The position numbers were made by a program, and so were the translations under genes. Below the pieces are notes generated by a model. The model saw nothing but the letters and a program-made list of their open reading frames with translations. It had not been told where the DNA came from and searched no databases. Of a DNA stretch of 64,000 nucleotides, positions 63-36,412 are shown in pieces (within the stretch, counting starts at the first letter, position 1; each line of letters opens with the position of its first letter). The DNA is from an uncultured Rhodospirillaceae bacterium. Its GTDB lineage: Bacteria > Pseudomonadota > Alphaproteobacteria > Micavibrionales > UBA2020. The stretch is from the NCBI GenBank assembly GCA_964476835.1, contig CAYZCE010000008.1, forward strand, positions 512-64,511, in the 5' to 3' direction.

Positions 63-581
63 CTAGATAAAGGGATCATATGACCATTGCAAAAGCGCCT
101 GCCGCTGGCGCGGGCGGCAGGTCAGGCAGTGCTTTGGGCAATTGATCCTGACTTGCGCGGCGTGGCGGGAGAAGGCGCGCCAGCGCCGGATCTGCGCCGC
201 ATCGACTTTCGGCAAACGGCGGCCCATCCAGTAGCGGCAATACCACTGGAACCAGCCGCGTGGGTCGGGGCCGATGATCCAGCCGTTCGCGCGCCAGACC
301 GGCAGCGGCTGCCGGCTCTTGATGCCGAAATAATTCAGCGACGGATCGGCTGTCTCCGCCGTCTTGGCTTTCTTGAACCATGCCGTGGGGAATTCGTCCT
401 GGCAGTCGTTGCAGTACTTGCCCTCGAAGACGCCGAGCTCGAGCATTTTCTGCGGCGTAAAGTGCGGCGTGAAGCCGGCGTCGAAATCCTTTCCGGCACG
501 CGCGGTCAGGCTGTAAGTGTAATCCTGCTGCATCTTGTCATGCACGTGGATGGTCGTACCGGGCTTGAAGGAAGTCGTCAT
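63..581 (-). CDS. conserved hypothetical protein, Trp/Cys-rich (172 aa)
   Basis: ORF 63..641 trimmed to Met21 (MTTSFKPG...) because the upstream part overlaps the tRNA-Leu at 594-680. Distinctive motifs KYCNDC, GWFQWYCRYWMGRR and CPKHCLTC. I cannot name a family. No clear RBS. Confidence 0.55.
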   Translation of the reverse strand: MTTSFKPGTTIHVHDKMQQDYTYSLTARAGKDFDAGFTPHFTPQKMLELGVFEGKYCNDCQDEFPTAWFKKAKTAETADPSLNYFGIKSRQPLPVWRANGWIIGPDPRGWFQWYCRYWMGRRLPKVDAAQIRRWRAFSRHAAQVRINCPKHCLTCRPRQRQALLQWSYDPFI

Positions 582-2323: not shown

Positions 2324-3598
2324 TTGCGCAAGGGGGCGTCCATCGTTGTCCTGATGGCGATGCTGCTGGCGGCTGCGCCGGCGCGCGCCCAAGATGACGA
2401 CAACAAGCCCACTTTCGACCAGGCCAAGGCCTACTACGACAACGGCGATTTCGACAACGCGGCGGGCATCCTCTGGCGCATCGCCGGCGACGGCGACCCG
2501 GCGGCGCAATACTATCTCGGCGTCCTCATGGACAATGGCTGGGGCACGGCGAAGAACACCAACGACGCCGCCAACTGGTTCCGCAAGGCCGCGCAGCAGG
2601 ACTATGCGCCGGCGATGGCCTATCTCGGTTATCTCTACAGCTCTGGCCGCGGCGTGACGAAGGACGAGCGCGCCGGTTTCGACTGGTACGCCAAGGCGGC
2701 GCAGGCGGGCGACCCGGCGGCGCAGAACAACCTTGGCGTCATGCTGCGCGACGGCCGTCCTTACAGCAGGGATTACACGCAGGCGGCGAAGTGGTTTTAC
2801 CTCTCCGCCATGCAGGGCTATGCGCGCGCACAGTTCAACATGGGCGATGCCTACCGCCTCGGCCAAGGCGTCAAGCAATCCGACGCGGACGCGGTCAAGT
2901 GGTACACTTATGCGGCGAAGCAGGGCGACGTCTCCGCCGAAAACGCGCTGGGCGATGCCTACCGCAACGGCCGCGGCGTGGACAAGAGCGGCAGCGAGGC
3001 GCTTGCCTGGTACAACCGCGCCGCCAACCAGGGCAGCGTGGACGCGATGGTCAACGTCGCCAAGATGTACGAGACGATGGAAGGCGACAAGACGCACGGC
3101 CCCGCCGATGCGGCCGTGTGGTACCAAAAGGCGGCGGAGAAGGGCAACGTGCCCGCGATGCATTACCTCGCCAACCTCTATGAAATGGGCATCGGCGTGA
3201 AGCAGGACTATACGCAGGCCGCCATTTGGTACAAGAAGGCCGGCGAGGAAAACAAATTCATGCCGTCGCTGATCGCGCTCGCGCACCTCTACGACAAGGG
3301 GCTGGGCGTCACGCAGAACGCCGACATGGCGCGCAGCCTCTACCAGCGCGGCGCCAATACCGGCGACGGGCAGAGCCAGCTCGCGCTCGCGCGCATGTTC
3401 AAGGAGGGCCGCGGCGGCGAGGTCGACCTGATCGCCGCTTATCAGTGGTTTGCATTGGCGGCCACCGCGCTGCCTGAAGGGCAGGACCGCAACGCCGCCG
3501 TCGTCGGCCGCATCCAGACCGCGAACGCGATGAACGAATCCCAGGTCGCCGAGGCGCGCAAGCGCATCAACGAATTCACGCCGCAGCCGTCGAAATAA
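2324..3598 (+). CDS. secreted Sel1-like repeat (SLR/TPR-like) protein
   Basis: About ten ~36-aa repeats of the type AxxxLGxxYxxGxGVxxDxxxAxxWYxKAAxxG. N-terminus LRKGASIVVLMAMLLAAAPARA-QDD looks like a signal peptide. Proposed TTG start at 2324 has GGAG 7 nt upstream. The start is uncertain (in-frame ATGs at the VLMAM position). Confidence 0.82.
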   Translation: MRKGASIVVLMAMLLAAAPARAQDDDNKPTFDQAKAYYDNGDFDNAAGILWRIAGDGDPAAQYYLGVLMDNGWGTAKNTNDAANWFRKAAQQDYAPAMAYLGYLYSSGRGVTKDERAGFDWYAKAAQAGDPAAQNNLGVMLRDGRPYSRDYTQAAKWFYLSAMQGYARAQFNMGDAYRLGQGVKQSDADAVKWYTYAAKQGDVSAENALGDAYRNGRGVDKSGSEALAWYNRAANQGSVDAMVNVAKMYETMEGDKTHGPADAAVWYQKAAEKGNVPAMHYLANLYEMGIGVKQDYTQAAIWYKKAGEENKFMPSLIALAHLYDKGLGVTQNADMARSLYQRGANTGDGQSQLALARMFKEGRGGEVDLIAAYQWFALAATALPEGQDRNAAVVGRIQTANAMNESQVAEARKRINEFTPQPSK

Positions 3599-3614
3599 CC
3601 GAAGGGGTCTTGCG

Positions 3615-4673
3615 ATGTCCGATTATATCTCGACCTTCCAGACCGTGGCGGCGTCGCTGACGTCGAAGGACTTCAGCGCGACGGACCTCTCCGCGGCGAC
3701 GCGCCGCATCCTGAACAACCTGCAATCCGACATCGGGCAAGTGCACCGCGACAGCGCGATCCTGTTTGCGCCCGGTTCCGCAGGGCCGTTGCCTGCGGGT
3801 CATGCGATCGCGCGGATGTTCGTCCGCTGGCGCAAGGACCCGCCGTCGATGCCCGCGCTGCTGATTGTCGCGGCCGCGCATTTCAACATCCCGGCGGAAA
3901 CGCCCGCGTTCAAGGCCGCGCTGATGGCGGCCGTTGCGGCTGAAGTGCCGAGCCGGCTTCCCTACCACAGCAACCACCACTTCCGCGAAGTGGTCGCCAT
4001 GATGGCGCGCCTGTGCGACGCCAATAACGCGCTCGCGCAGGTCGGCACCGCCGGCACCATGATGCTGTCGCCCGACGACGTCGCGCTCTGCCTGCTCGCC
4101 GCCGTCGGCCACGACCTGCTGCATGACGGCAAGGGCAACGCGCCGCAAGGCAACTGGACGCCCTACAGGCTGGAAGACCGCGCGATTGCGGCGATCGCGC
4201 CGTTCATGGCGGCCGCAGGCGTTTCCGTCCATGACATGGAGTGCGCGCGCGTGATGATCCGCGTCACCGACACTTCCGCCGCGCCCAATGCCGACAGCCC
4301 GCACAAGGTCTTGCGCAAGGTATTCAACGGCGACGCTTCCGTCACCGTGCCGCCCGAACTGGCGGCGCTCATCGGCGACAAGAAATTGCAGACGCTGGCC
4401 GCATTGATGTCGGATGCCGACCTCAGCCCCTCGGGCGCGACCAATTATTTGTTCTGCCGCATGCAGACGCACCTGTTCGCCGCCGAGACGCCGGGCTTCG
4501 TCGCCAGCGACCGCAGCATGGGCGGCTTCCTCGGTTTCGTGCTGGAGAACCGCTTCCTCTCGCACGCGGCGATCGCCGCGTCGCAGCCGTCGCTCTCGAC
4601 GCTGGTGCAGAAAGTCGGCGACCGCATCGCCGCCGGCACGCCGCCGCACCCGAACCGCGCGATCGGCCCTTAA
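3615..4673 (+). CDS. HD-superfamily metal-dependent phosphohydrolase resembling class I 3',5'-cyclic-nucleotide phosphodiesterase catalytic domain
   Basis: 352 aa. The ordered motifs YHSNHHFREV, AAVGHDLLHDGKGN, VTDTS and SDADLSPS mirror the PDEase_I series YHNxxHAxxV / HDxxHxGxxN / TDMS / ADLSN. No signal peptide. Confidence 0.7.
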   Translation: MSDYISTFQTVAASLTSKDFSATDLSAATRRILNNLQSDIGQVHRDSAILFAPGSAGPLPAGHAIARMFVRWRKDPPSMPALLIVAAAHFNIPAETPAFKAALMAAVAAEVPSRLPYHSNHHFREVVAMMARLCDANNALAQVGTAGTMMLSPDDVALCLLAAVGHDLLHDGKGNAPQGNWTPYRLEDRAIAAIAPFMAAAGVSVHDMECARVMIRVTDTSAAPNADSPHKVLRKVFNGDASVTVPPELAALIGDKKLQTLAALMSDADLSPSGATNYLFCRMQTHLFAAETPGFVASDRSMGGFLGFVLENRFLSHAAIAASQPSLSTLVQKVGDRIAAGTPPHPNRAIGP

Positions 4674-5080
4674 GCCAAGATGCTGTTGATGACCGGCCGC
4701 GGCTCCTCGGTGAGCGTGCGGTGCACCGGGCATTTGTCGGCGATCTCGAGCAGGCGCTGGCGTTGCGTGTCGTCGAGGTTCCCTTCCAGCGCGATCGTGC
4801 GCGTGATGATGTCGGCGCGGTTTTCCTTCACGTGCGTCAGGGCGACCGAGATGCGCGTCACATCCCATTTCTTCTGGTTCGCGTACATGCGCAGCGTGAT
4901 CGACGTGCAGGCGCCGAGGGACGAGAGCAGCAGCGCGTACGGCGACGGCCCCGCGTCGCGGCCGCCCGTGGCAAGGGGCTCGTCGCCCGTCCAGCCGTGG
5001 CGCGTGTCGGTGATGGCCTGGGTATAAAGGCCGTCGCCGGTTTCGGTGACGGTGACGGAAAGGCGCGCGGCATCGGTCAT
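4670..5080 (-). CDS. OsmC/Ohr family peroxiredoxin-like protein
   Basis: Trimmed to MTDAARLSV... (137 aa). GGRDAGPSPYALLLSSLGACTSITLRMYA and ADKCPVHRTL are the two conserved Cys regions of the OsmC family. Confidence 0.87.
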   Translation of the reverse strand: MTDAARLSVTVTETGDGLYTQAITDTRHGWTGDEPLATGGRDAGPSPYALLLSSLGACTSITLRMYANQKKWDVTRISVALTHVKENRADIITRTIALEGNLDDTQRQRLLEIADKCPVHRTLTEEPRPVINSILA

Positions 5081-5270
5081 GGTGAATCGGCCTTGTTGTT
5101 GTTCTCCTTGAAATAAGGCCATCCAAACGTACTTTTCAAGGCGAAAACCCCTTTCGGTAATCATATAAAACCCTATCTATATCAATATGTTATATACCAG
5201 TAACCAGATCTTAACTTTGTTTGCATAAAGTGAAAGACGAATAAGGGACTTCCCAATAAGGAGATAAACG

Positions 5271-7820: not shown

Positions 7821-8216
7821 TTAGAGCGACTGAAGGATCTGAGTGACTTTGTCGCTGTAACCCGAAAACTCTTTCGCACGTTTTTTCAGCAGGGGGCGAT
7901 TGATGCTGTTGCCAACGGCGGATGCGGGCTTCCTGGCGACCTCGTCGAAGGACTTCCTGAGGCTATAAAGGATGTCGCGCGTGGTGCGCATGGTCTCCCC
8001 GTTATCTGCGGCCTTTTCAAGGTCGGCCGCAGCTTCGCCGTAAATATTCGCTATCCCCATGTGGTTGTTGAATCCGCCGGAAATTAAAACGCCGATCCGT
8101 TGAAAGATGTTTCCGTTGAGAAAACGATCGTTCTCTTGAGCGACTTTAGCGAGATATTGCTGGCACTTTTCCTGCAGCTGTTCTTTAAGCTTGGCGATCA
8201 TCTGAAGGGAGGACAT
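7821..8216 (-). CDS. hypothetical protein, helical, lower GC than neighbours (132 aa)
   Basis: Trimmed to MSSLQMIAKLKEQ..., where AGGAG lies 9 nt upstream of the ATG (minus strand). No recognisable family. Visibly more AT-rich than the flanking genes. Confidence 0.6.
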   Translation of the reverse strand: MSSLQMIAKLKEQLQEKCQQYLAKVAQENDRFLNGNIFQRIGVLISGGFNNHMGIANIYGEAAADLEKAADNGETMRTTRDILYSLRKSFDEVARKPASAVGNSINRPLLKKRAKEFSGYSDKVTQILQSL

Positions 8217-8390
8217 GCGGCGAATCTCCTTAAAAAATAAAGCGAATGGCGAATGGCGTGAATAATGAACGAAATTCATAATTATGTCAATTAAAAAGTG
8301 TGCGCGGCCTACAGACAGCGGCGGGGAGCCACTTCTTCCTTGCCTCGGGGCTTTTTCTTATGGTACTACCTATCCCGTTCTGATGCGTAT

Positions 8391-8465
8391 GCGCGTGTAG
8401 CTCAGTGGTAGAGCACTGCTTTGACATAGCAGGGGTAGAAAGTTCGATCCTTTCCACGCGCACCA
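8391..8465 (+). tRNA. tRNA-Val (anticodon GAC)
   Basis: GCGCGTGTAGCTCAGTGGTAGAGCA...CTGCT-TTGACAT-AGCAG...GGTAGAAAGTTCGATCCTTTCCACGCGCACCA. Cloverleaf-compatible, with encoded CCA. Confidence 0.9.
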
Positions 8466-17814: not shown

Positions 17815-18924
17815 TTGAACAACGCCGCTTCACAACAATCCGCCCCGCTCCTCAAGACGCCGCTCTGGGCGTTGCACCGGGAACTGGGCGGCAAGATGGT
17901 GCCCTTCGCGGGCTACGACATGCCCGTGCAGTATGACGGCATGGGCGTGCTGAAGGAACACCTGCACACCCGCGCCGCCGCCGGCCTCTTCGACGTTTCG
18001 CACATGGGGCAGGCGATCCTCTCCGGCGACGTCGACGCGCTCGAGGCGTTGGTGCCTTCCGACATCCGCGGTCTCGTGCCTGGTCAGATGCGCTACACGC
18101 ACTTGTTGAATGACCAAGGCGGCATCATTGACGACCTGATCGTCACGCGCCGCGATGCGCAAACTTTGTTCATCGTCGTCAACGCCGCCTGCAAGGATGG
18201 CGACTTTGCTCATATCCGTGCGAAACTAGCGGGCAAGGCCGAGCTAAAAATCCGCGATGACCGCGCGCTCATCGCGGTGCAGGGCCCTGCGGCGGAAAAA
18301 GTCGTCGCCGCGCATTTCCCGGCGGCGGCAGCGCTCGGCTTCATGACGTCGCTGGTGGAAGGCGACGTCTTCGTGTCGCGCTGCGGCTATACCGGTGAAG
18401 ACGGTTTTGAAATCTCCATCCCCGCCGCGCGCGCGGAAGAATTCGCGCGCATCCTGATGAAGCACGACGATGCAAAGTGGATCGGTCTCGGCGCGCGCGA
18501 CAGCTTGCGCCTTGAAGCCGGCCTGTGCCTTTACGGCCACGATATCGACACGGCCACCACGCCGGTCGAGGCCAACCTGAAGTGGATCATTCCCAAACGC
18601 CGCCGCGCCGACGGCGGCTTCCCGGGTGCGAATAAGATCATCGCACAAATCACGGACGGCGCACCGCGCCTGCGCATCGGCCTGCAGCCGGAAGGCCGCG
18701 CCCCCTTGCGCGAAGGCACCGAACTGTTCGCCGGCGGCCGCAAGATCGGCGTCATCACCAGCGGCGGCTTCGGCCCCAGCGTGAACGCGCCGGTGGCGAT
18801 GGGCTACGTCGAAACCGCTTTCGCCGCCGTCGGCACGAAAATCGACGCCATGCTGCGCGGCGAGGCGCGTCCCTGCGCCGTGGCCGCGCTCCCGTTCATT
18901 CCCGCCAAATACAAGAAGGATTAA
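17815..18924 (+). CDS. gcvT: glycine cleavage system aminomethyltransferase T
   Basis: LKTPLWALHRELGGKMVPFAGYDMPVQY and CGYTGEDGFEISIP. A TTG start at 17815 is the only in-frame start upstream of the conserved N-terminus, with AAGG 10 nt upstream. Confidence 0.92.
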   Translation: MNNAASQQSAPLLKTPLWALHRELGGKMVPFAGYDMPVQYDGMGVLKEHLHTRAAAGLFDVSHMGQAILSGDVDALEALVPSDIRGLVPGQMRYTHLLNDQGGIIDDLIVTRRDAQTLFIVVNAACKDGDFAHIRAKLAGKAELKIRDDRALIAVQGPAAEKVVAAHFPAAAALGFMTSLVEGDVFVSRCGYTGEDGFEISIPAARAEEFARILMKHDDAKWIGLGARDSLRLEAGLCLYGHDIDTATTPVEANLKWIIPKRRRADGGFPGANKIIAQITDGAPRLRIGLQPEGRAPLREGTELFAGGRKIGVITSGGFGPSVNAPVAMGYVETAFAAVGTKIDAMLRGEARPCAVAALPFIPAKYKKD

Positions 18925-18928
18925 GACC

Positions 18929-19302
18929 ATGAGCAAGACGTTCTTCAGCGACGATCACGAATATGTGCGCCTTGACGGCGGCACCGGCACCGTCGGCATT
19001 TCCGATTACGCGCAGAACGCGCTGGGCGACGTGGTCTATGTCGAGCTGCCCAAGGTCGGCGCGGCCGTGAAAAAAGGCGCGCAGGCCGGCGTCGTCGAAT
19101 CCGTGAAGTCGGCGAGCGAGATTTATTCCCCCGTCTCCGGCGAAGTGACCGAGATCAACGCCGACCTCGCGACCAACCCCGCGCTCGTCAACGAAGACCC
19201 GCTCGGGAAGGGCTGGTTCTTCAAGGTCAAGGTCGCCAATGAAGGCGAGCTCGCCGCGCTGAAAGACGAAACCGCTTACACCGCTTACATCAAGAGCCTC
19301 TG

Positions 19303-19303
<1 letters not shown>
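18929..19303 (+). CDS. gcvH: glycine cleavage system protein H
   Basis: 124 aa. Lipoyl-lysine motif [18 protein letters not shown]. Confidence 0.95.
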
Positions 19304-22185
<2,882 letters not shown>

Positions 22186-25727: not shown

Positions 25728-26792
25728 ATGACGGCGCATCTTTTCTCTCCCCTGACGTTGCGCGGCGTGACGTTCCGCAACCGCATCGGCATGTCGCCGA
25801 TGTGCCAGTATTCCTCGGCCGACGGCTTCGTCAACGACTGGCACCTCGCGCATATTGGTGCGCGGGCGGCAGGCGGCGTCGGGCTGACGATGATGGAGGC
25901 GACGGGCGTGACGCCCGAAGGCCGCATCACGCCGGGCTGCGCCGGCATATGGAGGGACGCGCATATCGAGCCGTTCCGCCGCATCGTCGATTTCGTGGAG
26001 TCCCAAGGGGCTGTCGCCGGCATCCAGCTCGCGCATGCGGGGCGCAAGGCCAGCATGAACGTGCCGTGGAAAGGCGACAAGCGCCTGACCGCCGCCGAGG
26101 GCGGCTGGCAAACGATCGCGCCGTCTCCGGTGCCTTTCGCAGCCGAACACGATGCGCCGCTGGAGATGTCGGCCATTTATATCCGCCAAGCCATCGACGC
26201 TTTCGTCGCGGCGGCGGAGCGGGCGGTGAAGGCGGGCTTTCGCGTCATCGAGCTGCACGGCGCACATGGATACTTGCTGCACGAATTCCTCTCTCCCATC
26301 AGCAACAAGCGCACCGATTCGTATGGTGGACCGCTCGATAACCGCTGCCGCCTGATCTGGGAGATCGCCGAGCAGGTGCGGGCGAAAATTCCCAAAGGCC
26401 TCGCGCTCGGCGCGCGGCTGTCCTGCGCGGATTGGGTCGCGGGCGGCCTGACGATCGAGGACACCATCCATGTTGCGGCGGGATTGAAGCAACGCGGCGT
26501 GGATTTTATCGATTGCTCTTCCGGCGGCATCAGCCCCGACGCAAGGCCCAAGGCCGGGCCTGGGTATCAAGTGCCCTTTGCACGCGACATCCGCGCCAAA
26601 GCAGGCGTTCCCACCTGCGCCGTCGGCATGATCACCGAAGCCGTGCAGGCGGATGCGCTGATCCGCGACGGCGCCGCCGACATGGTCTTCATCGGCCGTG
26701 CGCTGCTGCGCGACCCGTCGTGGGCCTTGCATGCCGCTGCGGCACTTGGCCAGAAGGCGGACGTACCGCTGCAATATTTACGGGCTTATTAA
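25728..26792 (+). CDS. NADH:flavin oxidoreductase, Old Yellow Enzyme family (YqjM/NamA-like)
   Basis: Trimmed to MTAHLFSPLTLRGVTFRNRIGMSPMCQYSS. Also has IELHGAHGYLLHEFLSP and GRALLRDPSW. Confidence 0.9.
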   Translation: MTAHLFSPLTLRGVTFRNRIGMSPMCQYSSADGFVNDWHLAHIGARAAGGVGLTMMEATGVTPEGRITPGCAGIWRDAHIEPFRRIVDFVESQGAVAGIQLAHAGRKASMNVPWKGDKRLTAAEGGWQTIAPSPVPFAAEHDAPLEMSAIYIRQAIDAFVAAAERAVKAGFRVIELHGAHGYLLHEFLSPISNKRTDSYGGPLDNRCRLIWEIAEQVRAKIPKGLALGARLSCADWVAGGLTIEDTIHVAAGLKQRGVDFIDCSSGGISPDARPKAGPGYQVPFARDIRAKAGVPTCAVGMITEAVQADALIRDGAADMVFIGRALLRDPSWALHAAAALGQKADVPLQYLRAY

Positions 26793-27616
26793 GCCTTCGG
26801 CGCCGGGATCCAACGTTCCGCGTCCAGCGAACCTTGCGGCAGCGACACGAGGCTGACTTCCAGCGTCGGGGCGGCGGCCTTGTTCTCGTATCCGTCGCGG
26901 AATTTCTCGAGGATCTCGCAGAAACGCGTGAAGGCGTCCAGCGGCTCGGTCTCGTATTGCGGGCGCTGCAGCAGGATCGCGAAGTCCTGCGTCGAGAGGC
27001 GGCCGATGACGTCGGACTGGCGGCGCATGAAGGTGACCTTTTCGGTCAGCTTGGCGAGCGAAGCTTCGGCGGCCTCCGCGCCCGATGCGGCCACGACCTC
27101 GTCGTAATTCGCCATGCTGATGAAGACGACAAGGCTGCGCTCGCCGTAGCGGAACGAGCGGTCGATCGCCGAGAGGAAAAGCTGGTTGAACGCCGCCTTG
27201 CCGATCATCCCGCCGGTCGAGTGCACGTTATCCTCGTGCGCGAGGTGCGCCATGATGTCGAGCAGGCGTTCGGCGTTGCCGATTTTGGTCTCGATGTCGG
27301 TGCTGCTGAAGGGCTTGACCAGCACGTCGTTGGTGCCGGACATGATCGCCTCTTCCGCCGTCGCCGTCTTGGAGAGGAAGAGGAGGTAGGGCTTGGGGCC
27401 GTTCTTCGGCGTGCTCTTCCAGATGCCGAGCATGACCGGGCGCGCGTCGCTGAGCGGTGCGGGGTCGAACATGATGCAGTCGAAATTGCCGGCCTTGATC
27501 TTGTCGAAGGCGTCGTTCTTCGACGGCTCCACCACGACGGTATGGCCCAGCGATTGCAGCTTGGCCGCAATCAGCTGGTTGGTCAGGGATTCGCGGTCAA
27601 TGACCAGGATATGCAT
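26789..27616 (-). CDS. response regulator: REC domain + degenerate GGDEF domain (A-site lost, RxxD I-site retained)
   Basis: REC: MHILVIDRE..., acceptor Asp in CIMFDP, LFLSK and VLVKPF. The C-terminal domain aligns to GGDEF, but the active-site position reads RLSTQDFAILL, preceded by RQSD five residues upstream. Confidence 0.8.
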   Translation of the reverse strand: MHILVIDRESLTNQLIAAKLQSLGHTVVVEPSKNDAFDKIKAGNFDCIMFDPAPLSDARPVMLGIWKSTPKNGPKPYLLFLSKTATAEEAIMSGTNDVLVKPFSSTDIETKIGNAERLLDIMAHLAHEDNVHSTGGMIGKAAFNQLFLSAIDRSFRYGERSLVVFISMANYDEVVAASGAEAAEASLAKLTEKVTFMRRQSDVIGRLSTQDFAILLQRPQYETEPLDAFTRFCEILEKFRDGYENKAAAPTLEVSLVSLPQGSLDAERWIPAPKA

Positions 27617-27754: not shown

Positions 27755-27839
27755 GCCCAAATGGCGGAATTGGTAGACGCGCAGGTTTCAGGTACCTGTG
27801 GGGCAACCCGTGGAAGTTCGAGTCTTCTTTTGGGCACCA
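27755..27839 (+). tRNA. tRNA-Leu (anticodon CAG)
   Basis: GCCCAAATGGCGGAATTGGTAGACGCG-CAGGT-TTCAGGT-ACCTG-variable arm-GGAAGTTCGAGTCTTCTTTTGGGCACCA. 85 nt, class II. Confidence 0.9.
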
Positions 27840-27900: not shown

Positions 27901-27976
27901 CGTAAAGATTTTCCTGCCGAATCTTCCTTGTCAATCTCCGCGCCGGTTTGTCATTCTAATGTGCAGAAGAAACCTC

Positions 27977-30900
27977 ATGAATAAGGATCGCCCCTCCATG
28001 ACCTCCCGTTCAGCACGTGCCATGAAGACGTCACTTCTTGCCGGTGTGGCCTTGATGTGCCTGGTAGCGACGGGAGCCCGCGCGGACAATTTCATCACGG
28101 ACGGCGAAACGGTATCCGCCGACCATATCAATGCCAGCTGGGATATCTACGGCACCGGCTTGCCGGACAATACCGCCAATATCACGATCAACAGCATCGG
28201 CAACACCGTCACGCTCGGCGCGTTCAATTCTTACGCGGCTTTCCAGTTCGACCCCACGCCCGACGCGGATCCGGACCTGATCGGCGCATTGACGGTCATC
28301 GGCGGAAACGCCGTCACCTTCGACGGCTTCATCGACGGCAGCCACGGCGGCATCACGCTGACCTCTGCTGCGACCAACCTGACCTTCCATGACGACATCA
28401 CCAACAACGTCGCCATCACCATCGGGGATGACGCCAATGCGGTCGCCGCTACGTTCATGCTGGCGGACCAATCCATTTCCGGCCTTGCCGGCGGGTACGA
28501 CCTGAACGTTTCCGCCACCATCGATGCCGGCGGCACCGCGCCTGAAAACGCCGCGATCAACGTGGTGAACAACACGGGCAGCTATCACACCGTCATCTTC
28601 AGCAGCGACCTCGGCAGCCAAGGCGCGCTCGGCGCCATCACCGTCGGCGCGGATACCGTGTCGACGGGCGTGGATTTCGGCGGCAACGTCGATGCCACCA
28701 ACATCACGCTCGGCGGATGGAGCACGCAGGGAGATACCAACTTCGCCATCTTCGGCAATGCTGTCGCCGCGCCGACCGTCGTGACGGCGGACATCGACGG
28801 CGCGGAATATGAATCTGCCGTTGACGACATAAGCGAGGAAAATACCGGCGGCAACTGGGTCGGCGTGGAAGGCGGCGCCGATGTCACGTTCACCGGCGCG
28901 ATCGGCAGCAAGATCAGCGCTGTGCTGCTCGGCCTCGGCGGCGACGGCACCGAAGACACAAGCGCGACGTTCACGGACGATGTCGCTACCTCGATCATCC
29001 TCAACACCACCGGAATTTCCGAGAACAACCATTTCGACAGCGACTACGCCACCCCGCCGAACGACAGCCTGACCATCGACGCCACGGGCGGCGACATCAC
29101 CGTCTCCGGCACCATCCTCAATGCCGTTTTCTACAACAACCCTTCGTACAGCACGCCCGAAGAGCTCATGGACAGCCTGACGGGCACCGTCATCCTCACC
29201 GGCGGCACCATCGGCACGCCGCGCGAGATCAACGTCGGCGCGATCGACTTCGTCAATACCCTGAATGTCGGCGATTACACCACGGTGAACCTGGCCGGCG
29301 ATTCTACGTCGCACGACGGCATGGACTGGGAGATGTACAGCAACGACATCTACGGCAACAGCATCCTGCTTCTGAATGTTGCCATGCAGGACCATTCCGT
29401 CATCAACCTGACGACGCCTGGCGGCAGCATCCTTGAAGCCATCGTTTCCTCGACGGGCGGCACGGTGAACGTCGGTGAAGACAGCGCCGCCCTCTTCGAC
29501 GGCGACACCAGCACGGCGGTCAACCTGCAGGGCGCCAACGCCTCGGTCGGTTTCGATTCGTTCCCCGGCAACCCGGCGGTATCGGTGGTGACGAGCGACA
29601 TCGTCTCGTCCATCGCGGACGTATCTGAGCGCGGCCAGACGCGCACCGTTTCTTTCAATGACGTGGATTTTCAAGGCACGCTGTCGTTCGGCGACGCCAA
29701 CGACACGCTGCATATCGAGAACATGACGCTGGACGGGCCGGTCGACCTCGGCTACGGCGCGAACCATGTCGAGCTGGCCAACGGCGGCGCGATCAGCAAC
29801 AGCACGTCCGACCCGGATATCACGTTCGGCTCGGGCACCAGCGTATTGAAACTCACCGCCGCGACCTTCGACGGCGCGGTCGCGCATAGCGGCACCGGCG
29901 GCGTTGTCCTGGACCTGCACGGAGGCTGCCCGACGTCGGATCCTTGCGCGGCGATCGGCGCAGATGCGACATTCGAGGACCTGACCGATGTCGACGTCAC
30001 CGACGACATCTCCGTCGTGCAAGCGGCGCTGGCGCCGGCGAACGGCACCTCGATCACTTCCAGCGGCACGCTGATTATCAACGGCGGATCAGCATCGCTC
30101 GCAGGCGACGTCCGGGGCGACAGCACCGGTACGCTGGCGTTCAGCAACGGCAGCTTCAGCAACCCGGCGTCGGGCGGCGTTTACTCGTCCGTCAGCCTCG
30201 CGCTCGACAACGCGACCTTCACGACGGCGACCGCGACCGACACCGGCATCGATTCCCTCCATGCGATCAGCGTGCTGGACGGCTCCACGTTCAACGTGAA
30301 TGCCGACGTTTCTTCCGCCGACGCGCTGACCGTCGACAATTCGACGGTAAACATCGCCGCCGGAAAGACGCTAGCGGCGGGTTCCATGAACGGCATGACC
30401 GATGGCACGCTCTCCTTCGGCCTCGACGACGACGGCACGGCCGGCCGCCTGACCCTCACCGACGGCGGGATCATCCTGCAGGGCGCGACCGTCAAGATCG
30501 ACCTGACGTCGCCGAGCACGTTCAGCCTGACCACGCCCGTCCTTCTCGCCACCGGCACCGCGACGCTCATCGGCTTCGACGGCAGCGACGGGCAGGCGGC
30601 AACGGAAATCGGGGCGAACACCGCGTTGTGGACGTTCTATGTCGAGGACGGCACCTATGCCGGCGGCGACGACACTCAGCTCTACGTCGTGGCGGAACGC
30701 GACGGCCCTTCGATCGCGGAGGTGGGTGCGGAACATAGCCCCAGCAACGCATCCGTCGGCGCGACATTTGACGGCCTTTCCGCGACCACCGACCCGCAGC
30801 TCCTGGCGATCCTGACGAAGATCAACGCGGCGCCGACCGACGCGGCGATCAACGCGATCCTGTCCTCCGTCAAGCCGACCGGCAACGGCGCGGCGGCGGG

Positions 30901-31834
30901 CACGCTTAACATGATCAACAACGCGCTCAACCTCAACAGCATGCACCTCGACGAAGTGCGCCAGACCGGCCTTTCCGGCGGCACGGCGGTGCGCGGCATG
31001 CAGTTCTGGACGCAGGCCTTCGGCCAGACGGCAAACCAGGGCATGCGCGGCGGCGATGCGGGTTTCGAGGCGGATACGGCGGGCTTTGCGGCCGGCATCG
31101 ATTCCGAGAACCTCGTGAAGAACGCGGTGATCGGCGCGGCCGTCGACTACGGCCACACCAACGTCAACTCCAGCAACGGCAACAGCACCGGCGCCGACAT
31201 CAACAGCTACCAGCTGACGGCCTACGGCGAGTACGACTTCGGCAACAAGACCTACTTCAACGCGCAGGCGTCTTATGCGTTCAACAAGACCGACGTTGTG
31301 CGCTACGACGTCGGCGGCCTCGGCGGCTTGACGGCGCGCGGTAGCTTCGATGCCGACCAATACGCGTTGCGCGCTGAAACCGGCCACAGCTTCCAGGCCG
31401 GCGCGACCACGCTGACGCCCAAGGCGCTGGCGCACTGGGCGCACTACAGCCCCGACGACTACACCGAAACCGGCGCGGGCGGCGCGAGCCTTGCGGTCAA
31501 CCAGAAGTCGATGGACATCTTCGAGCTGGGCGGCGGCCTCGACGCCAGCTGGAAGTTCCGCCGCGACGACGGCGCCGAAGTGGTGCCGGCGATCCGCGCG
31601 GGATACCGCTATGACCTCATCGGCGACAGCGTCGCCTCGACGTCGACCTTCGCGGGCGGCGGCACGGCCTTCAGCACCGAAGGCGCAAGCCCGGCGCGCG
31701 GCACCGCCACGCTCGGCGCAGGCCTCAAGTACGCGCTGCCCAACGCGGTCGACCTGACGCTCAATTACGATTTCGAGCACAAGGCCGACTATAATTCCAA
31801 CTCGGGCTACCTTCGCGTCGGGTACAGCTTTTGA
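27977..31834 (+). CDS. autotransporter outer-membrane protein 1 (large Gly/Thr/Asp/Asn-rich passenger + C-terminal beta-barrel)
   Basis: Signal-like MKTSLLAGVALMCLVATGARA-DN. Passenger of about 950 aa. C-terminal ~280 aa has the autotransporter beta-domain pattern (MQFWTQAFGQ..., alternating hydrophobic strands, terminal YLRVGYSF). Start ambiguous (27977, 27998 or 28022). Confidence 0.85.
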   Translation: MNKDRPSMTSRSARAMKTSLLAGVALMCLVATGARADNFITDGETVSADHINASWDIYGTGLPDNTANITINSIGNTVTLGAFNSYAAFQFDPTPDADPDLIGALTVIGGNAVTFDGFIDGSHGGITLTSAATNLTFHDDITNNVAITIGDDANAVAATFMLADQSISGLAGGYDLNVSATIDAGGTAPENAAINVVNNTGSYHTVIFSSDLGSQGALGAITVGADTVSTGVDFGGNVDATNITLGGWSTQGDTNFAIFGNAVAAPTVVTADIDGAEYESAVDDISEENTGGNWVGVEGGADVTFTGAIGSKISAVLLGLGGDGTEDTSATFTDDVATSIILNTTGISENNHFDSDYATPPNDSLTIDATGGDITVSGTILNAVFYNNPSYSTPEELMDSLTGTVILTGGTIGTPREINVGAIDFVNTLNVGDYTTVNLAGDSTSHDGMDWEMYSNDIYGNSILLLNVAMQDHSVINLTTPGGSILEAIVSSTGGTVNVGEDSAALFDGDTSTAVNLQGANASVGFDSFPGNPAVSVVTSDIVSSIADVSERGQTRTVSFNDVDFQGTLSFGDANDTLHIENMTLDGPVDLGYGANHVELANGGAISNSTSDPDITFGSGTSVLKLTAATFDGAVAHSGTGGVVLDLHGGCPTSDPCAAIGADATFEDLTDVDVTDDISVVQAALAPANGTSITSSGTLIINGGSASLAGDVRGDSTGTLAFSNGSFSNPASGGVYSSVSLALDNATFTTATATDTGIDSLHAISVLDGSTFNVNADVSSADALTVDNSTVNIAAGKTLAAGSMNGMTDGTLSFGLDDDGTAGRLTLTDGGIILQGATVKIDLTSPSTFSLTTPVLLATGTATLIGFDGSDGQAATEIGANTALWTFYVEDGTYAGGDDTQLYVVAERDGPSIAEVGAEHSPSNASVGATFDGLSATTDPQLLAILTKINAAPTDAAINAILSSVKPTGNGAAAGTLNMINNALNLNSMHLDEVRQTGLSGGTAVRGMQFWTQAFGQTANQGMRGGDAGFEADTAGFAAGIDSENLVKNAVIGAAVDYGHTNVNSSNGNSTGADINSYQLTAYGEYDFGNKTYFNAQASYAFNKTDVVRYDVGGLGGLTARGSFDADQYALRAETGHSFQAGATTLTPKALAHWAHYSPDDYTETGAGGASLAVNQKSMDIFELGGGLDASWKFRRDDGAEVVPAIRAGYRYDLIGDSVASTSTFAGGGTAFSTEGASPARGTATLGAGLKYALPNAVDLTLNYDFEHKADYNSNSGYLRVGYSF

Positions 31835-31878
31835 CGGAAAAAAGGCATCAGCGGGCGCCGAACGCCTATCTCCAGGAC

Positions 31879-33225
31879 ATGCGCGGCGATGCGGCGGAGG
31901 TCGCGTGGCCAGCGTTGCTGACCTCGGCGCGTGCCTCTCTCGTTGCGCTGCTGTACCAGATGGAAGACACGCAATGGCTGCCGGCGGATGTCTTCGTCCA
32001 GAACCAGATGCGGCAGGTCGGCAAGCTGGTGGCGCATGCCGCCACGCAGTCGCCATTCTTCCGCCAGCGGCTTGAAAAGGCCGGGCTGAAGCCGGAAGAC
32101 CTCGCGACGCCGGAAGGTTTCCGTCGCCTGCCGCCGATGACGCGCCGCGACATCCAGGATGCGCAAGAGACGCTCTTCTGCGCTTCATCGCCGCCGACGC
32201 ATATGCCGGCCTGGGAGGCGACGACCTCCGGCTCGACGGGCGAGAAGGTGAAGGTCCGCAAGACCCAGCTAAGCAGCCTTTATTGGGTCGCGCTGACATT
32301 GCGCGGGCATTTCTGGTATGCGCGCGACATGAAGAAGCGGCTGATGGCCGTGCGCGACGGCATCCCCGAGGTGCAGAACGCGCCGGACTGGGGCTTCCCG
32401 ATCAGCCAGCTGTTCGACAGCGGGCCGATGCGCATCGTGCCGGGCTGGACGCCCGCGCCGGAATACGAGCGCCATATCCGCGATTTCCGTCCGCACTACC
32501 TGATCGCCTACCCGAGCGTGCTCGCCGCCATCATGGAAGAAAGCCGGCGCAAGAATATGCCGATCGAGGGCGTCGAGCACGTCATGACGATCGGCGAGCG
32601 CCTGTCGCCCGAACAGGCACAGGATATCGCGGCCTTCTTCAACGCGCGCGTCATCGACGTTTATTCTTCCACCGAGACGGGAAACACGGCGGTGCAATGT
32701 CCGGAAAGCGGGCTGTATCACGTGATGGGCGAAAGCGTGCTGCTTGAGATCCTCGACGACAAGGGCAACCCTTGCGCAGCCGGCGAAGTCGGGAAAGTCG
32801 TCATGACGGACCTGAGCAATTACGCGACGCCGATGATCCGCTATGCGATCGGCGACTATGCCGAAGCGGGCGGCGCCTGCTCTTGCGGGCGCGCGCTGCC
32901 GACGGTCAAGCGCTTCCTCGGGCGCGAACGCAACCTCGCACTGCGCCCGGACGGCACCAAATACTGGCCGGTCATCGGCGCCGTCATGTTCCACGAAGTC
33001 GCATCCGAGGTCCGGCAGGCGCAGTTCGTCCAGCTTGACCGCAACACGCTGGAAGTGCGGCTCTCCACCGATGCGCCCGTCGCCCCGGCACAGGAGGAAC
33101 GCTTCCGGGAGATGATATATAAGGCGCTCGGTTGCCGTTATACCGTTAATTTCGTTTATTTTTCCGACCGCCTGCCGGCGTCGTCGAACGGCAAGTTCGA
33201 CGATTTTATTTGCCAAGCGAGCTAG
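31879..33225 (+). CDS. adenylate-forming enzyme of the phenylacetate-CoA ligase / coenzyme F390 synthetase (PaaK/CapK-like) family
   Basis: Motifs TTSGSTGEKV (A3), VYSSTETG (A5), IRYAIGDY (A8) and SSNGKFDDF (A10 Lys). ATG 31879 has AGGA just upstream. An alternative TTG at 31831 would overlap the autotransporter stop by 4 nt. Confidence 0.8.
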   Translation: MRGDAAEVAWPALLTSARASLVALLYQMEDTQWLPADVFVQNQMRQVGKLVAHAATQSPFFRQRLEKAGLKPEDLATPEGFRRLPPMTRRDIQDAQETLFCASSPPTHMPAWEATTSGSTGEKVKVRKTQLSSLYWVALTLRGHFWYARDMKKRLMAVRDGIPEVQNAPDWGFPISQLFDSGPMRIVPGWTPAPEYERHIRDFRPHYLIAYPSVLAAIMEESRRKNMPIEGVEHVMTIGERLSPEQAQDIAAFFNARVIDVYSSTETGNTAVQCPESGLYHVMGESVLLEILDDKGNPCAAGEVGKVVMTDLSNYATPMIRYAIGDYAEAGGACSCGRALPTVKRFLGRERNLALRPDGTKYWPVIGAVMFHEVASEVRQAQFVQLDRNTLEVRLSTDAPVAPAQEERFREMIYKALGCRYTVNFVYFSDRLPASSNGKFDDFICQAS

Positions 33226-33320
33226 AGTTTCGTAAAAAGGCGCCTCTCAAAAAAGCCCCCCTCGGCTAGAATCAGGCTGACTGATTTGTGACGAATAATA
33301 ACAACGAAAAAGTAACGCAC

Positions 33321-35711
33321 ATGATGTCACCCTTTCTCCGCAAAGCCCTTTTCGCAGGCTCGGCCCTTGTCGCCTTGGGCGCGGCAGTGCCCGCGCAGGC
33401 TTCGACGCAAATCGTCAACGGCAGCGACATCGTCGTCAACAGCGACCCTAACGCGACGCCCGCGATCGAGTTCCAGTCGGACAACATCGCCACCATCAAC
33501 GGCGGCGTCAACATCACGGGCACCATCGTCGCGGATGCGCCGTCCACCGGCATCCTCCGCTTCCTCGGCTCTACCATCGTCGAAGGCGACGTCGGCAGCG
33601 CGACCAATGCGCTGAACCGCATCGACCTCTTCACCCAGATCGAGTTCAAGGGTGTGGTCTATACCGATGGCTTCGCAGGCCCCTTGGATGATGCGGAAGT
33701 CACCTTCGACCAAGACGTCTATGCCCTGTTGAACGGCCTCAACTTCGGCACCAGCCCGACGTCGGGCACCGTCAACCTCGCCGACGGCGTGACGTTCCAT
33801 GGCGATATCGTCAACACCGTCTCGTCCGAAGGCGGGCAGAGCGGCGGCATCCTGACCTTGTGGGGCGACGGCGTAGTGACCGGCATCGTCGGCGGCGGCC
33901 CCGGCAGGCCGCTCGACACCATCAACGCCGGCGTTGACGGGTCTTCGTCGACGTTTGAAAACACAGTCATGACGGCCACGGCGAACATCACCGGCGACGG
34001 CACGGTGACCTTCGACCAAAGCGTCGAGACGTCCGGCGTCAACTTCCTCGCCAACGGCACGGTCGTGCTCACCTACGGCTATAGCCTGAGCGGCCCCGAA
34101 GGCGGCAACACCCTAATGGTCGGCGCAGAAGCGGCGCCGCCGGGCGGCGGACATGGCAACGTCCTCATCCAGGGCGGCGACAATGGCACTTTCAATTTGC
34201 ACAGCAGCCTCGGCGGCCTCAACTCCCTGACGCTGGACGGCACGGGCAATACGACGACGGTCACCGGCAACGTCAATTCGATCAACGCCATCTACCTCGG
34301 CACCAACAGCCTCGTCATCAACGGCGGTTTCACCGAAGCGGCGGGTGATGCGATTTACGCGACGATCACGGGCGAAGTGGGCAGCACGCTGACCGGCGGC
34401 AACATCACCGTCGCCGGATCTGAGGGCGGCGGCACCGTGAACCTCGACATCTCGCCGTCGACGGCCGTCTACCTCGCCAACAACAGCCCCAGCGTCCACG
34501 CGGGCGACGTCTATACGCTTGTGACCTGCGCCACCGCCTGCAGCGCGGCGATCGGCACCGGCATCACGCCGGTCTCGCCGGGGCTTTCGTTCACGCAAGT
34601 CACCTCGGACCCGAACGTGCTGGCCTTCACGGTCAGCGCCGTCACGCCTGCGGGCGGCCTCAGCAATGCGCCCTTGTTCTACATGGCCGACCTGCCGCTC
34701 GAGGTGCTCGACGTGACGAGCGACGAATTGATGGCCGTGCGCGACGGCAACCCGGCGGTGGCCAGCGCGATGACTGGCATGTCCGCCGGTTACGCCGCGC
34801 CCAACGTCATCTACTTCAGCATGCCGTCGGGTTACAGGACCATCGGCGACCGGGACGGCAAGTCGCCCGTCGTCAACACCACCAACGCATGGATGCAGGC
34901 CTACGGCCAGCTGACGACGCAGGACACGCATGACGGCTATGCCGGCTATCACGCGATCGCGCGCGGCATGAGCGCCGGCGTGGACACGATTTCCCTGATC
35001 AAGGACACCATCGTCGGCATCGCGGCGAACTTCATTTCCGCCGACCTCAAGTCGAAGAACAACGAGAAGGCCGAAGTCGAGAGCCGCGGCATCATCGTCT
35101 ACGGCGGCCATGAACTGCCCTACAACCTCTTCACGCGCGCGCAGGCGGGTTATTCCTACAACACGGTCACGACGAAACGCTACAATTCCGACGGCGTCGG
35201 CGGCGAGTCCGACGGCAACTACGGCGCGGACCAATACTACGCGAAAGCCCTCGTCGGGCGCGATTACGTGACGAACAACGGCACGATCCTGACGCCCAAC
35301 GTCGTCGCCGACTATATCGGCCTGCACACGCAGGATTACACCGAGACCGGCTCGAGCCTGAGCAACCTGTCGATCGCCAGCGAGACCTTCAGCCAGTTGC
35401 GCGCCGGGCCCGGCCTCGACATGGCGTGGCGCATGCAGAACGCGAACGGCGGCGTCTTCCAGCCGTTGCTGCGCGTGCTCTACCAATACGACATCCTCGG
35501 CAACCGCCAGAGCACGGCCGCGACACCGGTGGGCGGCGGCGGCGCCATCATCGCCGACGGGCCGTCTCCCGCGCGCAACATCATCCGCCTCGGCGCGCAG
35601 GCGACGTACATGACGGTCGCGGGCTGGGATATTTCCGCCCGCTACGACTTCACGTACAAGACGGACTATCACGCCAACGACGGACTGCTGCGCGCGACCC
35701 TGCACTTCTGA
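33321..35711 (+). CDS. autotransporter outer-membrane protein 2 (paralog of 27977..31834)
   Basis: MMSPFLRKALFAGSALVALGAAVPAQA-STQ signal. Gly/Thr/Asn-rich passenger. Beta-domain begins around NAWMQAYGQ and ends LLRATLHF. Start at 33321/33324, or GTG at 33288. Confidence 0.85.
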   Translation: MMSPFLRKALFAGSALVALGAAVPAQASTQIVNGSDIVVNSDPNATPAIEFQSDNIATINGGVNITGTIVADAPSTGILRFLGSTIVEGDVGSATNALNRIDLFTQIEFKGVVYTDGFAGPLDDAEVTFDQDVYALLNGLNFGTSPTSGTVNLADGVTFHGDIVNTVSSEGGQSGGILTLWGDGVVTGIVGGGPGRPLDTINAGVDGSSSTFENTVMTATANITGDGTVTFDQSVETSGVNFLANGTVVLTYGYSLSGPEGGNTLMVGAEAAPPGGGHGNVLIQGGDNGTFNLHSSLGGLNSLTLDGTGNTTTVTGNVNSINAIYLGTNSLVINGGFTEAAGDAIYATITGEVGSTLTGGNITVAGSEGGGTVNLDISPSTAVYLANNSPSVHAGDVYTLVTCATACSAAIGTGITPVSPGLSFTQVTSDPNVLAFTVSAVTPAGGLSNAPLFYMADLPLEVLDVTSDELMAVRDGNPAVASAMTGMSAGYAAPNVIYFSMPSGYRTIGDRDGKSPVVNTTNAWMQAYGQLTTQDTHDGYAGYHAIARGMSAGVDTISLIKDTIVGIAANFISADLKSKNNEKAEVESRGIIVYGGHELPYNLFTRAQAGYSYNTVTTKRYNSDGVGGESDGNYGADQYYAKALVGRDYVTNNGTILTPNVVADYIGLHTQDYTETGSSLSNLSIASETFSQLRAGPGLDMAWRMQNANGGVFQPLLRVLYQYDILGNRQSTAATPVGGGGAIIADGPSPARNIIRLGAQATYMTVAGWDISARYDFTYKTDYHANDGLLRATLHF

Positions 35712-35800: not shown

Positions 35801-36412
35801 ATGTCTGTCACACTGCACCAGGGCGATCTTCCTGCGGGAATTTCATTCGGCGACGTCGTCGCCGTCGATACCGAAATGATGGGGCTGCGCCCCGCGCGCG
35901 ACCGCCTCTGCCTCGTGCAGTTGTCGGCGGGCGACGGCAGCGCGCATATCGTGCAGCTGAAGAAGGGTGACTATGCCGCGCCGAACCTGCGCAAGCTGCT
36001 GACCGACCCGAGTGTGACCAAGCTCTTCCACTTCGCGCGTTCCGACATCGCGTCCATCTACGCATGGCTCGGCGTCCTCTGCGCGCCGGTCTATTGCACC
36101 AAGCTGGCGTCGCGCCTGGCGCGCACCTATACGCAGCACCATTCGCTCAAGACCGTCTGCTCTGAACTGCTCGGCGTCGAACTCGACAAGCAGCAGCAGG
36201 CGACCAACTGGGGCGCGGAGACGCTGACGCCGGAGCAGGTGGCCTACGCCGCTTCCGACGTGCTCTACCTGCACCGCATCAAGGAAAAGCTCGACGCCAT
36301 GCTGGCGCAGGAAAGCCGCCGCGCGCTGGCGGATGAATGTTTCCGCTTCCTGCCCGCGCGCGCGTTGCTCGACCTTGCCGGCTGGGACAACGAAGACATT
36401 TTCGCGCATTGA
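35801..36412 (+). CDS. ribonuclease D-like DEDD 3'-5' exonuclease (short form)
   Basis: 203 aa. ExoI VAVDTEMMGL, ExoII KLFHFARSDI and ExoIII QVAYAASDVLYLHRI. Confidence 0.87.
   Translation: MSVTLHQGDLPAGISFGDVVAVDTEMMGLRPARDRLCLVQLSAGDGSAHIVQLKKGDYAAPNLRKLLTDPSVTKLFHFARSDIASIYAWLGVLCAPVYCTKLASRLARTYTQHHSLKTVCSELLGVELDKQQQATNWGAETLTPEQVAYAASDVLYLHRIKEKLDAMLAQESRRALADECFRFLPARALLDLAGWDNEDIFAH

Follow-up and report, generated by a model that had tools for sequence, protein, structure and literature searches.

The 64,000-nucleotide stretch analysed here (the window) lies on contig CAYZCE010000008.1 of an uncultured Rhodospirillaceae bacterium and carries, near its start, a gene (P0001) whose product resembles the catalytic domain of the class I cyclic-nucleotide phosphodiesterases (PDEs). 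A sequence-only reading had proposed such a domain from four short motifs and had called it unusual for a bacterium. The open reading frame (ORF) is preceded by a Shine-Dalgarno-like sequence (Table 1), and its GC content at the third and second codon positions (GC3 0.89, GC2 0.50) is typical of the genes in the window. An antisense ORF at 3576-5126 (-) was considered and rejected as a gene, given that the plus-strand frame has the coding GC3 signature as well as the homologues. Upstream, on the same strand and separated from the P0001 start codon by a 16-nt gap, ends a gene for a Sel1-repeat protein with a plausible Sec signal peptide (...IVVLMAMLLAAAPARA/QDD). The adjacency to a secreted Sel1 protein that had been remarked on from the letters is thus real; it was absent from all 16 related loci examined and, not being conserved, carries no functional weight. 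On the other side, the 3' end of a convergent OsmC-like gene overlaps P0001 by 4 nt. No signal peptide was found at the N-terminus of P0001, and its product is probably soluble and cytoplasmic.

Likeness to class I phosphodiesterases

In a Pfam search, P0001 matched PDEase_I (PF00233) first (E = 3.7e-4, 20.7 bits), followed by HD (E = 0.037) and HD-CE (E = 0.14). No NCBIfam model matched it, and a single-sequence phmmer search against the PDB returned nothing. Its close homologues form 26 clusters, all from metagenomes or metagenome-assembled genomes (MAGs). PDEase_I was the best Pfam match for 27 of 27 close sequences (best 3.6e-7), while HD matched eight of them, and more weakly. The gathering score of PF00233 was passed by the relatives P0041, P0048, P0127, P0128, P0133, P0150 and P0028, with 25-54 bits.

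Profile searches placed the family more sharply. Profile A1 comprised the 27 close sequences and profile A2 83 diverse members, down to 21% identity. Against all PDB sequences, A1 matched PDE7A best (3.8e-6), then PDE1B, 8A and 9A, trypanosomal PDEs, PDE5/6, PDE2 and PDE10; the non-PDE matches up to E = 10 were two chance ones at E > 1, with none from elsewhere in the HD superfamily. With A2, PDE7A was matched at 3.1e-11 and the best 60 matches listed were all class I PDEs. In hhalign comparisons with the catalytic domain of human PDE4D2 (the sequence used is identical to 1OYN), the shallow A1 reached a probability of 18.5% over the N-terminal half only, and the deeper A2 was needed to align residues 114-334 of the query to residues 78-321 of PDE4D, at a probability of 93.5% (E = 2.3e-7).

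The AlphaFold2 model of P0001, built on the 27-sequence alignment, is all-alpha (predicted local distance difference test score, pLDDT, 93.6; predicted template modelling score, pTM, 0.93). It has 16 helices, the number described for class I catalytic domains, and in this it is like the PF00233 enzymes, human PDE1-11 and TcrPDEC1 included. The best 50 Foldseek matches in the PDB were all class I PDE catalytic domains (probability 1.0, E from ~2.5e-5), among them PDE3A, 5A, 4B/D, 6, 2A, 8A and 9A, TcrPDEC1, TbrPDEB1 and RhoPDE. The highest query template modelling score (TMq 0.58) was to TcrPDEC1 chains, with a root-mean-square deviation (rmsd) of 5.3-5.4, and phage HD proteins matched the model more weakly than did class I PDEs. 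Two of the checks that had been suggested alongside the original proposal favoured it: PDEase_I ranked above generic HD, albeit below its gathering score, and the modelled structure found class I domains as its best 50 matches. The predicted fold is the same as that of class I PDEs, though strongly diverged, and we have very little doubt that homology and fold are of the class I type.

A generic HD phosphohydrolase, that is, a nucleotidase or phosphatase resembling class I enzymes only through the shared core of the HD superfamily, would account for the weak Pfam HD match and for a PDEase_I alignment confined to the H...HD region. A phage 'phosphohydrolase' family in PHROGs also matches a relative, and this weak match, for relatives, was the only one in that collection. 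We nevertheless consider this explanation very unlikely. Besides the failure of profile A1 to match any non-PDE HD protein in the PDB up to E = 10, the entire 16-helix domain was aligned to PDEs by hhalign and Foldseek, and the PDE-specific residues His160, His204, Glu230, Thr271, Glu339 and Phe372 all have invariant counterparts in the family (that of Phe372 in 82 of 83 relatives). HD phosphatases and nucleotidases such as SAMHD1, YfbR and SpoT-like proteins carry an Arg about three residues before the HD-motif His and a mononuclear H...HD...D site (PMC8177086); here the corresponding position 163 is Ala in 77 of 83 relatives, and the phosphatase-type Arg is absent. The evidence thus supports a domain of the class I PDE kind in particular, as opposed to a generic HD domain.

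Active site and predicted chemistry

Residues of P0001 were mapped onto PDE4D2 through hhalign and HMMER alignments, and columns were counted over 83 relatives (Table 1). All four motifs of the sequence-only reading stand in P0001 where it had placed them, with the order and spacing of class I PDEs (YHxxH...HDxxHxGxxN...E...TD...AD(L)), and P0001 is the only gene of the window to show them in an ordered combination. The PROSITE pattern PS00126, quoted in PMC5617230 as H-D-[LIVMFY]-x-H-x-[AG]-x(2)-[NQ]-x-[LIVMFY], is not matched in full by P0001 (HDLLHDGKGNAP). As had been noticed from the letters, the mismatch is limited to the last position: HDLLHDGKGN fits and P177 breaks the pattern. Within the family, the full pattern is found in 97 of 171 proteins, and in 161 of them if the last position is disregarded; without that position, the pattern arose in 5 of 20,000 shuffles of P0001.

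Ten residues are invariant in the 83 relatives (H118, H122, H166, D167, H170, G172, E187, T218, D269 and E291). Eight metal-pocket residues are strictly conserved in class I enzymes, in PDE4D2 numbering H160, H164, H200, D201, H204, E230, H233 and D318 (PMC5617230), and the family shares seven of them, together with the general-acid His, the equivalent of Glu339 and the clamp Phe. The hydrophobic clamp is complete, with F305 on one side and position 288 on the other, and fused multi-domain relatives keep the same catalytic set. Invariance of this kind across sequences sharing only 21-50% identity speaks for a working enzyme and against a pseudoenzyme, and P0001 is very probably catalytically competent.

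By homology with PDE4D, metal 1 would be bound by H122, H166, D167 and D269, and metal 2 by D167 and waters, held in place by E187, T218 and H170. A metal-bridging hydroxide would serve as the nucleophile on phosphorus, while H118, oriented by Y117 and E291, would protonate the leaving O3'. F305 and the hydrophobic residue 288 would hold the base stacked between them. Compared with PDE4D, the H-loop is about 9 residues shorter and the M-loop region about 19 residues shorter. Given these trimmed loops and the missing glutamine discussed below, base discrimination must either be weak or work in another way, and recognition of the base must differ from that in eukaryotic PDEs. S273, R124 and R185 are candidates for the residue that stands in for the glutamine. 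What the analysis shows is the fold, the homology and the conserved catalytic set; metals, mechanism and catalytic activity are all inferred from residue conservation and homology with PDE4D.

The reading that we prefer is that the product of P0001, a bacterial protein homologous to the class I (PDEase_I, HD-superfamily) catalytic domain but deeply diverged from it, would act as a metal-dependent phosphodiesterase, specifically a cytoplasmic PDE for 3',5'-cyclic nucleoside monophosphates (cNMPs) with relaxed base specificity. Taken as a whole, we give this reading an even chance. The choice of a cNMP as substrate is a guess, and at best a balanced one; affinity for it would probably be modest, and a role in the cell's own nucleotide signalling or housekeeping is likewise a guess.

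A number of observations weigh against this reading. The PDEase_I score of P0001 falls short of the 24.8-bit gathering threshold, and the alignment covers only model positions 1-52 of 238. Unlike class I PDEs, the family lacks the purine-scanning glutamine (Q369 of PDE4D2, the glutamine switch) in all 83 relatives, with Met in its place in P0001 and Leu, Ile or Thr in relatives. The H233 equivalent is lost from an otherwise invariant metal pocket, replaced by Ala or Ser; this His and the glutamine both count as invariant in class I PDEs. The Foldseek matches are distant (TM ~0.45-0.58, rmsd 5-11 Å, identity 13-19%), amounting to a large structural divergence. A Pfam scan of 23 window ORFs brought up no adenylate or guanylate cyclase and no protein that binds cNMPs, nor did the searchable literature yield a bacterial PDE of class I type that has been characterised. 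Neighbouring genes vary from subclade to subclade and favour no particular substrate, and relatives that are fused (to PP2C or a phosphoribosyl pyrophosphate (PRPP) synthetase-like domain) or have Zorya or NAD-salvage neighbours hint at substrates other than cyclic AMP (cAMP) or cyclic GMP (cGMP).

The proposal of a class I-like domain therefore stands in large part, though not in full. The ranking of PDEase_I above HD, the profile searches, the hhalign alignment and the AlphaFold model all bear it out; the sub-threshold Pfam score, the absence of the glutamine and the replacement of one metal-pocket residue do not. P0001 does not reach the Pfam threshold, does not match the PROSITE pattern throughout, and lacks both the glutamine and one metal-pocket residue. 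We therefore class it not as a class I PDE but as a bacterial variant, distinct from these, of the PDEase_I/HD fold.

Relatives and genomic settings

An exhaustive hidden Markov model search of 1.84 billion representatives returned 662 proteins at E <= 1e-3 (453 at <= 1e-10), giving a family of ~660 clusters at 50% identity, most of whose members are stand-alone proteins of 340-390 aa. Their sources name them 'hypothetical protein' only, although Pfam already tags some of them automatically. The view that such a domain is unusual in bacteria accordingly needs tempering, with ~660 bacterial clusters and automatic PF00233 matches already attached to several. In a scan of species-representative genomes, ten MAGs from Alphaproteobacteria, Micavibrio-like or other, carried family members at 38-48% identity, and more distant copies turned up in one Bdellovibrionales and one Rhizobiales MAG. 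The plasmid and phage collections searched contained no relatives.

This distribution bears on whether a eukaryotic PDE gene was recently acquired by horizontal transfer, an idea that has in its favour the literature's description of class I PDEs as eukaryotic. It is extremely improbable: identity to any solved eukaryotic PDE is only 13-19%, the GC3 of P0001 matches that of its neighbours, and the ~660 deeply diverged clusters span several bacterial lineages and at least three conserved syntenies, with no copy on a plasmid or phage.

The genes around P0001 are not those around its relatives. The OsmC neighbour is kept only in an identical Logan contig (L001). Loci from Micavibrio-like MAGs (L002-L009, ~2.7-13 kb) share a conserved block around the PDE-like gene that is absent from the window, with a CHASE3-PAS hybrid histidine kinase and an OmpR-type regulator upstream and a GlgX-like debranching enzyme, TamB and Omp85 downstream. 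On long contigs, the closest relatives lie as a single gene between NfeD/Band_7 (or leuCDB) and rplS-trmD-rimM-rpsP-ffh, and more distant relatives sit among unrelated metabolic genes. We considered and rejected the conserved neighbourhood as a guide to function, since the three syntenies differ and are all housekeeping or unrelated. What the context says is that this is a chromosomal, vertically inherited, single gene.

It is in this light that a translocated effector has to be judged, one that would collapse cAMP or cGMP signalling in a eukaryotic host or prey alongside other eukaryote-like proteins. The window offers some encouragement, with the secreted Sel1 protein next door, three tandem ankyrin-repeat proteins and two autotransporters. 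Relatives also occur in MAGs of Micavibrio-like and Bdellovibrionales bacteria, groups with a predatory lifestyle. Even so, P0001 has no signal peptide, the Sel1 adjacency is not conserved, and relatives lie amid ribosomal, signal recognition particle and leucine-biosynthesis genes and not beside secretion systems. The 13-19% identity to eukaryotic PDEs and the missing glutamine, needed for tight recognition of cAMP or cGMP, point the same way, leaving an effector role most unlikely.

Some relatives are fused or duplicated. P0133 (683 aa; Logan SRR11476867, contig L015, 513-7591) is a PDE-PP2C fusion preceded by a 70-aa ORF and followed directly by ZorA, ZorB and ZorC (PADLOC E = 1e-168, 2e-84 and 3e-78). 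P0128 (1133 aa) has a like layout of a 70-aa ORF, the fusion and then a protein of ~895 aa. The PP2C-fused relative may be a Zorya-associated accessory gene. In P0048 (645 aa; JGI 3300048587, contig L016, 1-7938) the PDE-like domain is fused to a C-terminal PRPP-synthetase-like (ribose-phosphate pyrophosphokinase) domain, and the gene lies divergently beside genes for NAPRTase-like (635 aa) and CN_hydrolase/NAD-synthase-like (1176 aa) proteins. This locus resembles NAD+/ADP-ribose (NAD+/ADPR) reconstitution modules, a hint that the branch may act on ADP-ribose-derived nucleotides. P0041 (1321 aa, on a 4.9-kb Logan contig) carries the complete PDE-like domain twice in tandem (aa 31-375 and 400-733), with the catalytic residues kept in each copy, and has ~590 further residues with no Pfam match. 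Neither P0001 nor the fused relatives matched PADLOC-DB, and no defence genes lie beside P0001; only the distant PP2C-fused relative abuts ZorABC.

Such relatives raise the possibility that the family has the same fold and chemistry with a substrate other than a 3',5'-cyclic mononucleotide. Candidates are a cyclic di- or oligonucleotide, a linear dinucleotide (pApA/pGpG), a signal derived from ADP-ribose, and a 2',3'-cNMP or RNA end; with its H- and M-loops shortened, the pocket would have room for a larger ligand. The lack of a glutamine switch and the deletions relative to PDE4D (19 residues in the M-loop region, 9 in the H-loop) agree with this, as do the PRPP-synthetase-like fusion beside NAPRTase-like and NAD-synthase-like genes and the PP2C fusion directly upstream of ZorA/ZorB/ZorC. 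PDEs of the HD superfamily, moreover, act on many nucleotide substrates (PMC8177086). On the other hand, cNMP hydrolysis uses these very elements, namely the general-acid His, the clamp Phe and a metal site of class I type; neither the HH nor the GYP motif of cyclic-dinucleotide HD enzymes is present, and P0001 has no PADLOC match and neither a defence nor an NAD setting. A different substrate is the main rival reading but the less likely one for P0001, for which we retain cNMP hydrolysis as the preferred reading.

Other genes of the window include lipB, kup, hpf, rpoN, gcvTHP, tkt, gap, lptCAB, flagellar genes, radA and aroA. A response-regulator receiver protein with a weak GGDEF domain is the sole nucleotide-second-messenger gene found in the window besides P0001. 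Further along lie two autotransporter genes, with a gene carrying a partial AMP-binding domain between them and a tRNA-Leu just upstream of the first, and then three consecutive ankyrin-repeat genes. An ankyrin gene also lies near the PDE-like gene on a relative's contig (L018, 11818-12507), and an ankyrin repertoire such as that of the window is typical of host- or prey-interacting bacteria. An ORF adjoining tRNA-Val, with a GC3 below that of its neighbours, may be horizontally acquired. Upstream of the gcvT-gcvH-gcvP operon, a glycine riboswitch was not detected at Rfam gathering thresholds; the Rfam scan of the window yielded three tRNAs only.

Table 1. Features of the window, with residues of P0001, their human PDE4D2 counterparts and their conservation in 83 relatives.
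Feature	Window position (nt)	Strand	P0001 residue(s)	PDE4D2 counterpart	Conservation or remark
Sel1-repeat protein gene, upstream of P0001	2264-3598	+			Pfam Sel1, 9 repeats, E = 2.6e-64
Shine-Dalgarno-like GAAGGGG	3601-3607	+			7 nt ahead of the P0001 ATG; read from sequence
Class I PDE-like gene P0001	3615-4673	+	352 aa		Stand-alone; ATG-start ORF
YHxxH motif LPYHSNHHFREV	3957-3992	+	115-126		
Tyr of YHxxH motif			Y117	Y159	Y in 72, F in 11
Predicted general acid	3966-3968	+	H118	H160 (general acid)	83/83
Predicted metal ligand	3978-3980	+	H122	H164 (metal ligand)	83/83
HD-region motif LSPDDVALCLLAAVGHDLLHDGKGN (...AAVGHDLLHDGKGN)	4065-4139	+	151-175		
HDLLHDGKGN	4110-4139	+			HD motif in PROSITE PS00126 region
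Predicted metal ligands			H166, D167	H200, D201 (metal ligands)	83/83 each
His of HD region			H170	H204	83/83
Gly of HD region			G172	G206	83/83
Asn of HD region			N175	N209	79/83
E187-D188-R189-A190 stretch	4173-4184	+	187-190		
Glu of this stretch			E187	E230	83/83
Lost His position			A190	H233	Ser in 44, Ala in 39
RVTDTS motif	4260-4277	+	216-221		
Thr and Asp of TD			T218, D219	T271, D272	83/83, 78/83
MSDADLSPS motif	4407-4433	+	265-273		
Predicted metal ligand	4419-4421	+	D269	D318 (metal ligand)	83/83
Asn321 position			P272	N321	Pro or Thr in family
Ser after AD(L) motif			S273		Family-specific, near-invariant, 82/83
Clamp partner			288 (F)	I336 (clamp partner)	Always hydrophobic; L, V or I in relatives
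Glu339 equivalent	4485-4487	+	E291	E339	83/83
M302-G-G-F305	4518-4529	+	302-305		
Scanning-glutamine position			M302	Q369	L in 42, I in 16, T in 14, others; never Gln
Clamp Phe			F305	F372 (hydrophobic clamp)	82/83
OsmC-like gene, downstream of P0001	4670-5164	-			Convergent; Pfam OsmC E = 3.2e-17
152-aa ORF	7821-8279	-			No Pfam match; GC3 0.63 vs ~0.85 in neighbours
tRNA-Val	8391-8465				
gcvT-gcvH-gcvP operon	17815-22185	+			
Receiver-GGDEF gene	26789-27616	-			GGDEF weak, E = 1.4e-8
tRNA-Leu(cag)	27755-27839				
First autotransporter	27959-31834	+			1291 aa; Autotransporter beta-domain E = 4e-48
Gene with partial AMP-binding domain	31831-33225				464 aa
Second autotransporter	33288-35711	+			807 aa; Autotransporter beta-domain E = 4e-38
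Three ankyrin-repeat genes	36337-37194, 37331-38098, 38095-38769	+			Pfam Ank_2 E = 1e-15 to 1e-21

Place among nucleotide phosphodiesterases

Reviews describe class I PDEs as eukaryotic, with bacteria degrading cAMP and cGMP by class II or class III enzymes. P0001 might do the same job of bacterial cNMP turnover as the class III enzymes (CpdA and Rv0805, of the metallophosphoesterase type) and class II enzymes (CpdP), whose folds and motifs are unrelated to it and with which no sequence or structural similarity was detected. In a bacterial host and as a stand-alone protein, it also differs from class I PDEs in having no GAF, PAS, UCR or calmodulin-binding regulatory domains, and its family has Pro or Thr in place of Asn321.

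The HD-GYP and PgpH phosphodiesterases, which hydrolyse c-di-GMP, cGAMP and c-di-AMP, are bacterial members of the HD superfamily that carry out metal-dependent hydrolysis of nucleotide phosphodiesters, as is predicted for P0001. These enzymes have H...HD...H...HH...D ligands, di- or trinuclear centres and, in HD-GYP, the GYP motif in addition (PMC8177086). The P0001 family has neither the HH pair (E187-x-x-A/S190 in its place) nor GYP, and no HD-GYP or PgpH matches were returned in Pfam or PDB searches of the family.

A precedent for divergence within class I itself is GlPDE of Giardia lamblia, which has an unusual M-loop and in which the 'totally conserved' His beside the metal-pocket His is replaced (PMC5617230). 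Class I enzymes evidently tolerate both changes. GlPDE, at 21-32% identity to human PDEs, still has the invariant glutamine and a metal pocket with all eight residues in place (PMC5617230), whereas the P0001 family has neither the glutamine nor the full metal-pocket set.

What emerges is a sizeable, unnamed and unstudied bacterial family with the class I fold and catalytic machinery and another solution to base recognition. The surprise is moderate, as some relatives already carry automatic Pfam tags, and HD proteins as a superfamily are universal. A bolder interpretation would see this mostly alphaproteobacterial family as the prokaryotic sister of the eukaryotic class I PDE domain, or as a lineage like its ancestor, conceivably passed on via the mitochondrial ancestor, and P0001 as a genuine bacterial cNMP PDE (possibly also for the cyclic forms of CMP and UMP, cCMP/cUMP) that recognises the base without a glutamine switch. 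We think this improbable; if true, it would add a fourth, overlooked route of bacterial cyclic-nucleotide turnover.

Should the family be active on cNMPs, it would be a new enzyme class in bacterial cyclic-nucleotide signalling. It would also provide an outgroup for the origin of the glutamine switch and of the H- and M-loops of the drug-target PDEs, and a minimal stand-alone scaffold for structural and inhibitor-selectivity work. Other nucleotide signals may be processed in some branches, as suggested by the relatives that are fused to PP2C or PRPP synthetase or lie next to Zorya genes. The finding itself is well supported, and it raises a question that can be tested, on how bacteria turn over cNMPs and on where the eukaryotic PDEs came from.

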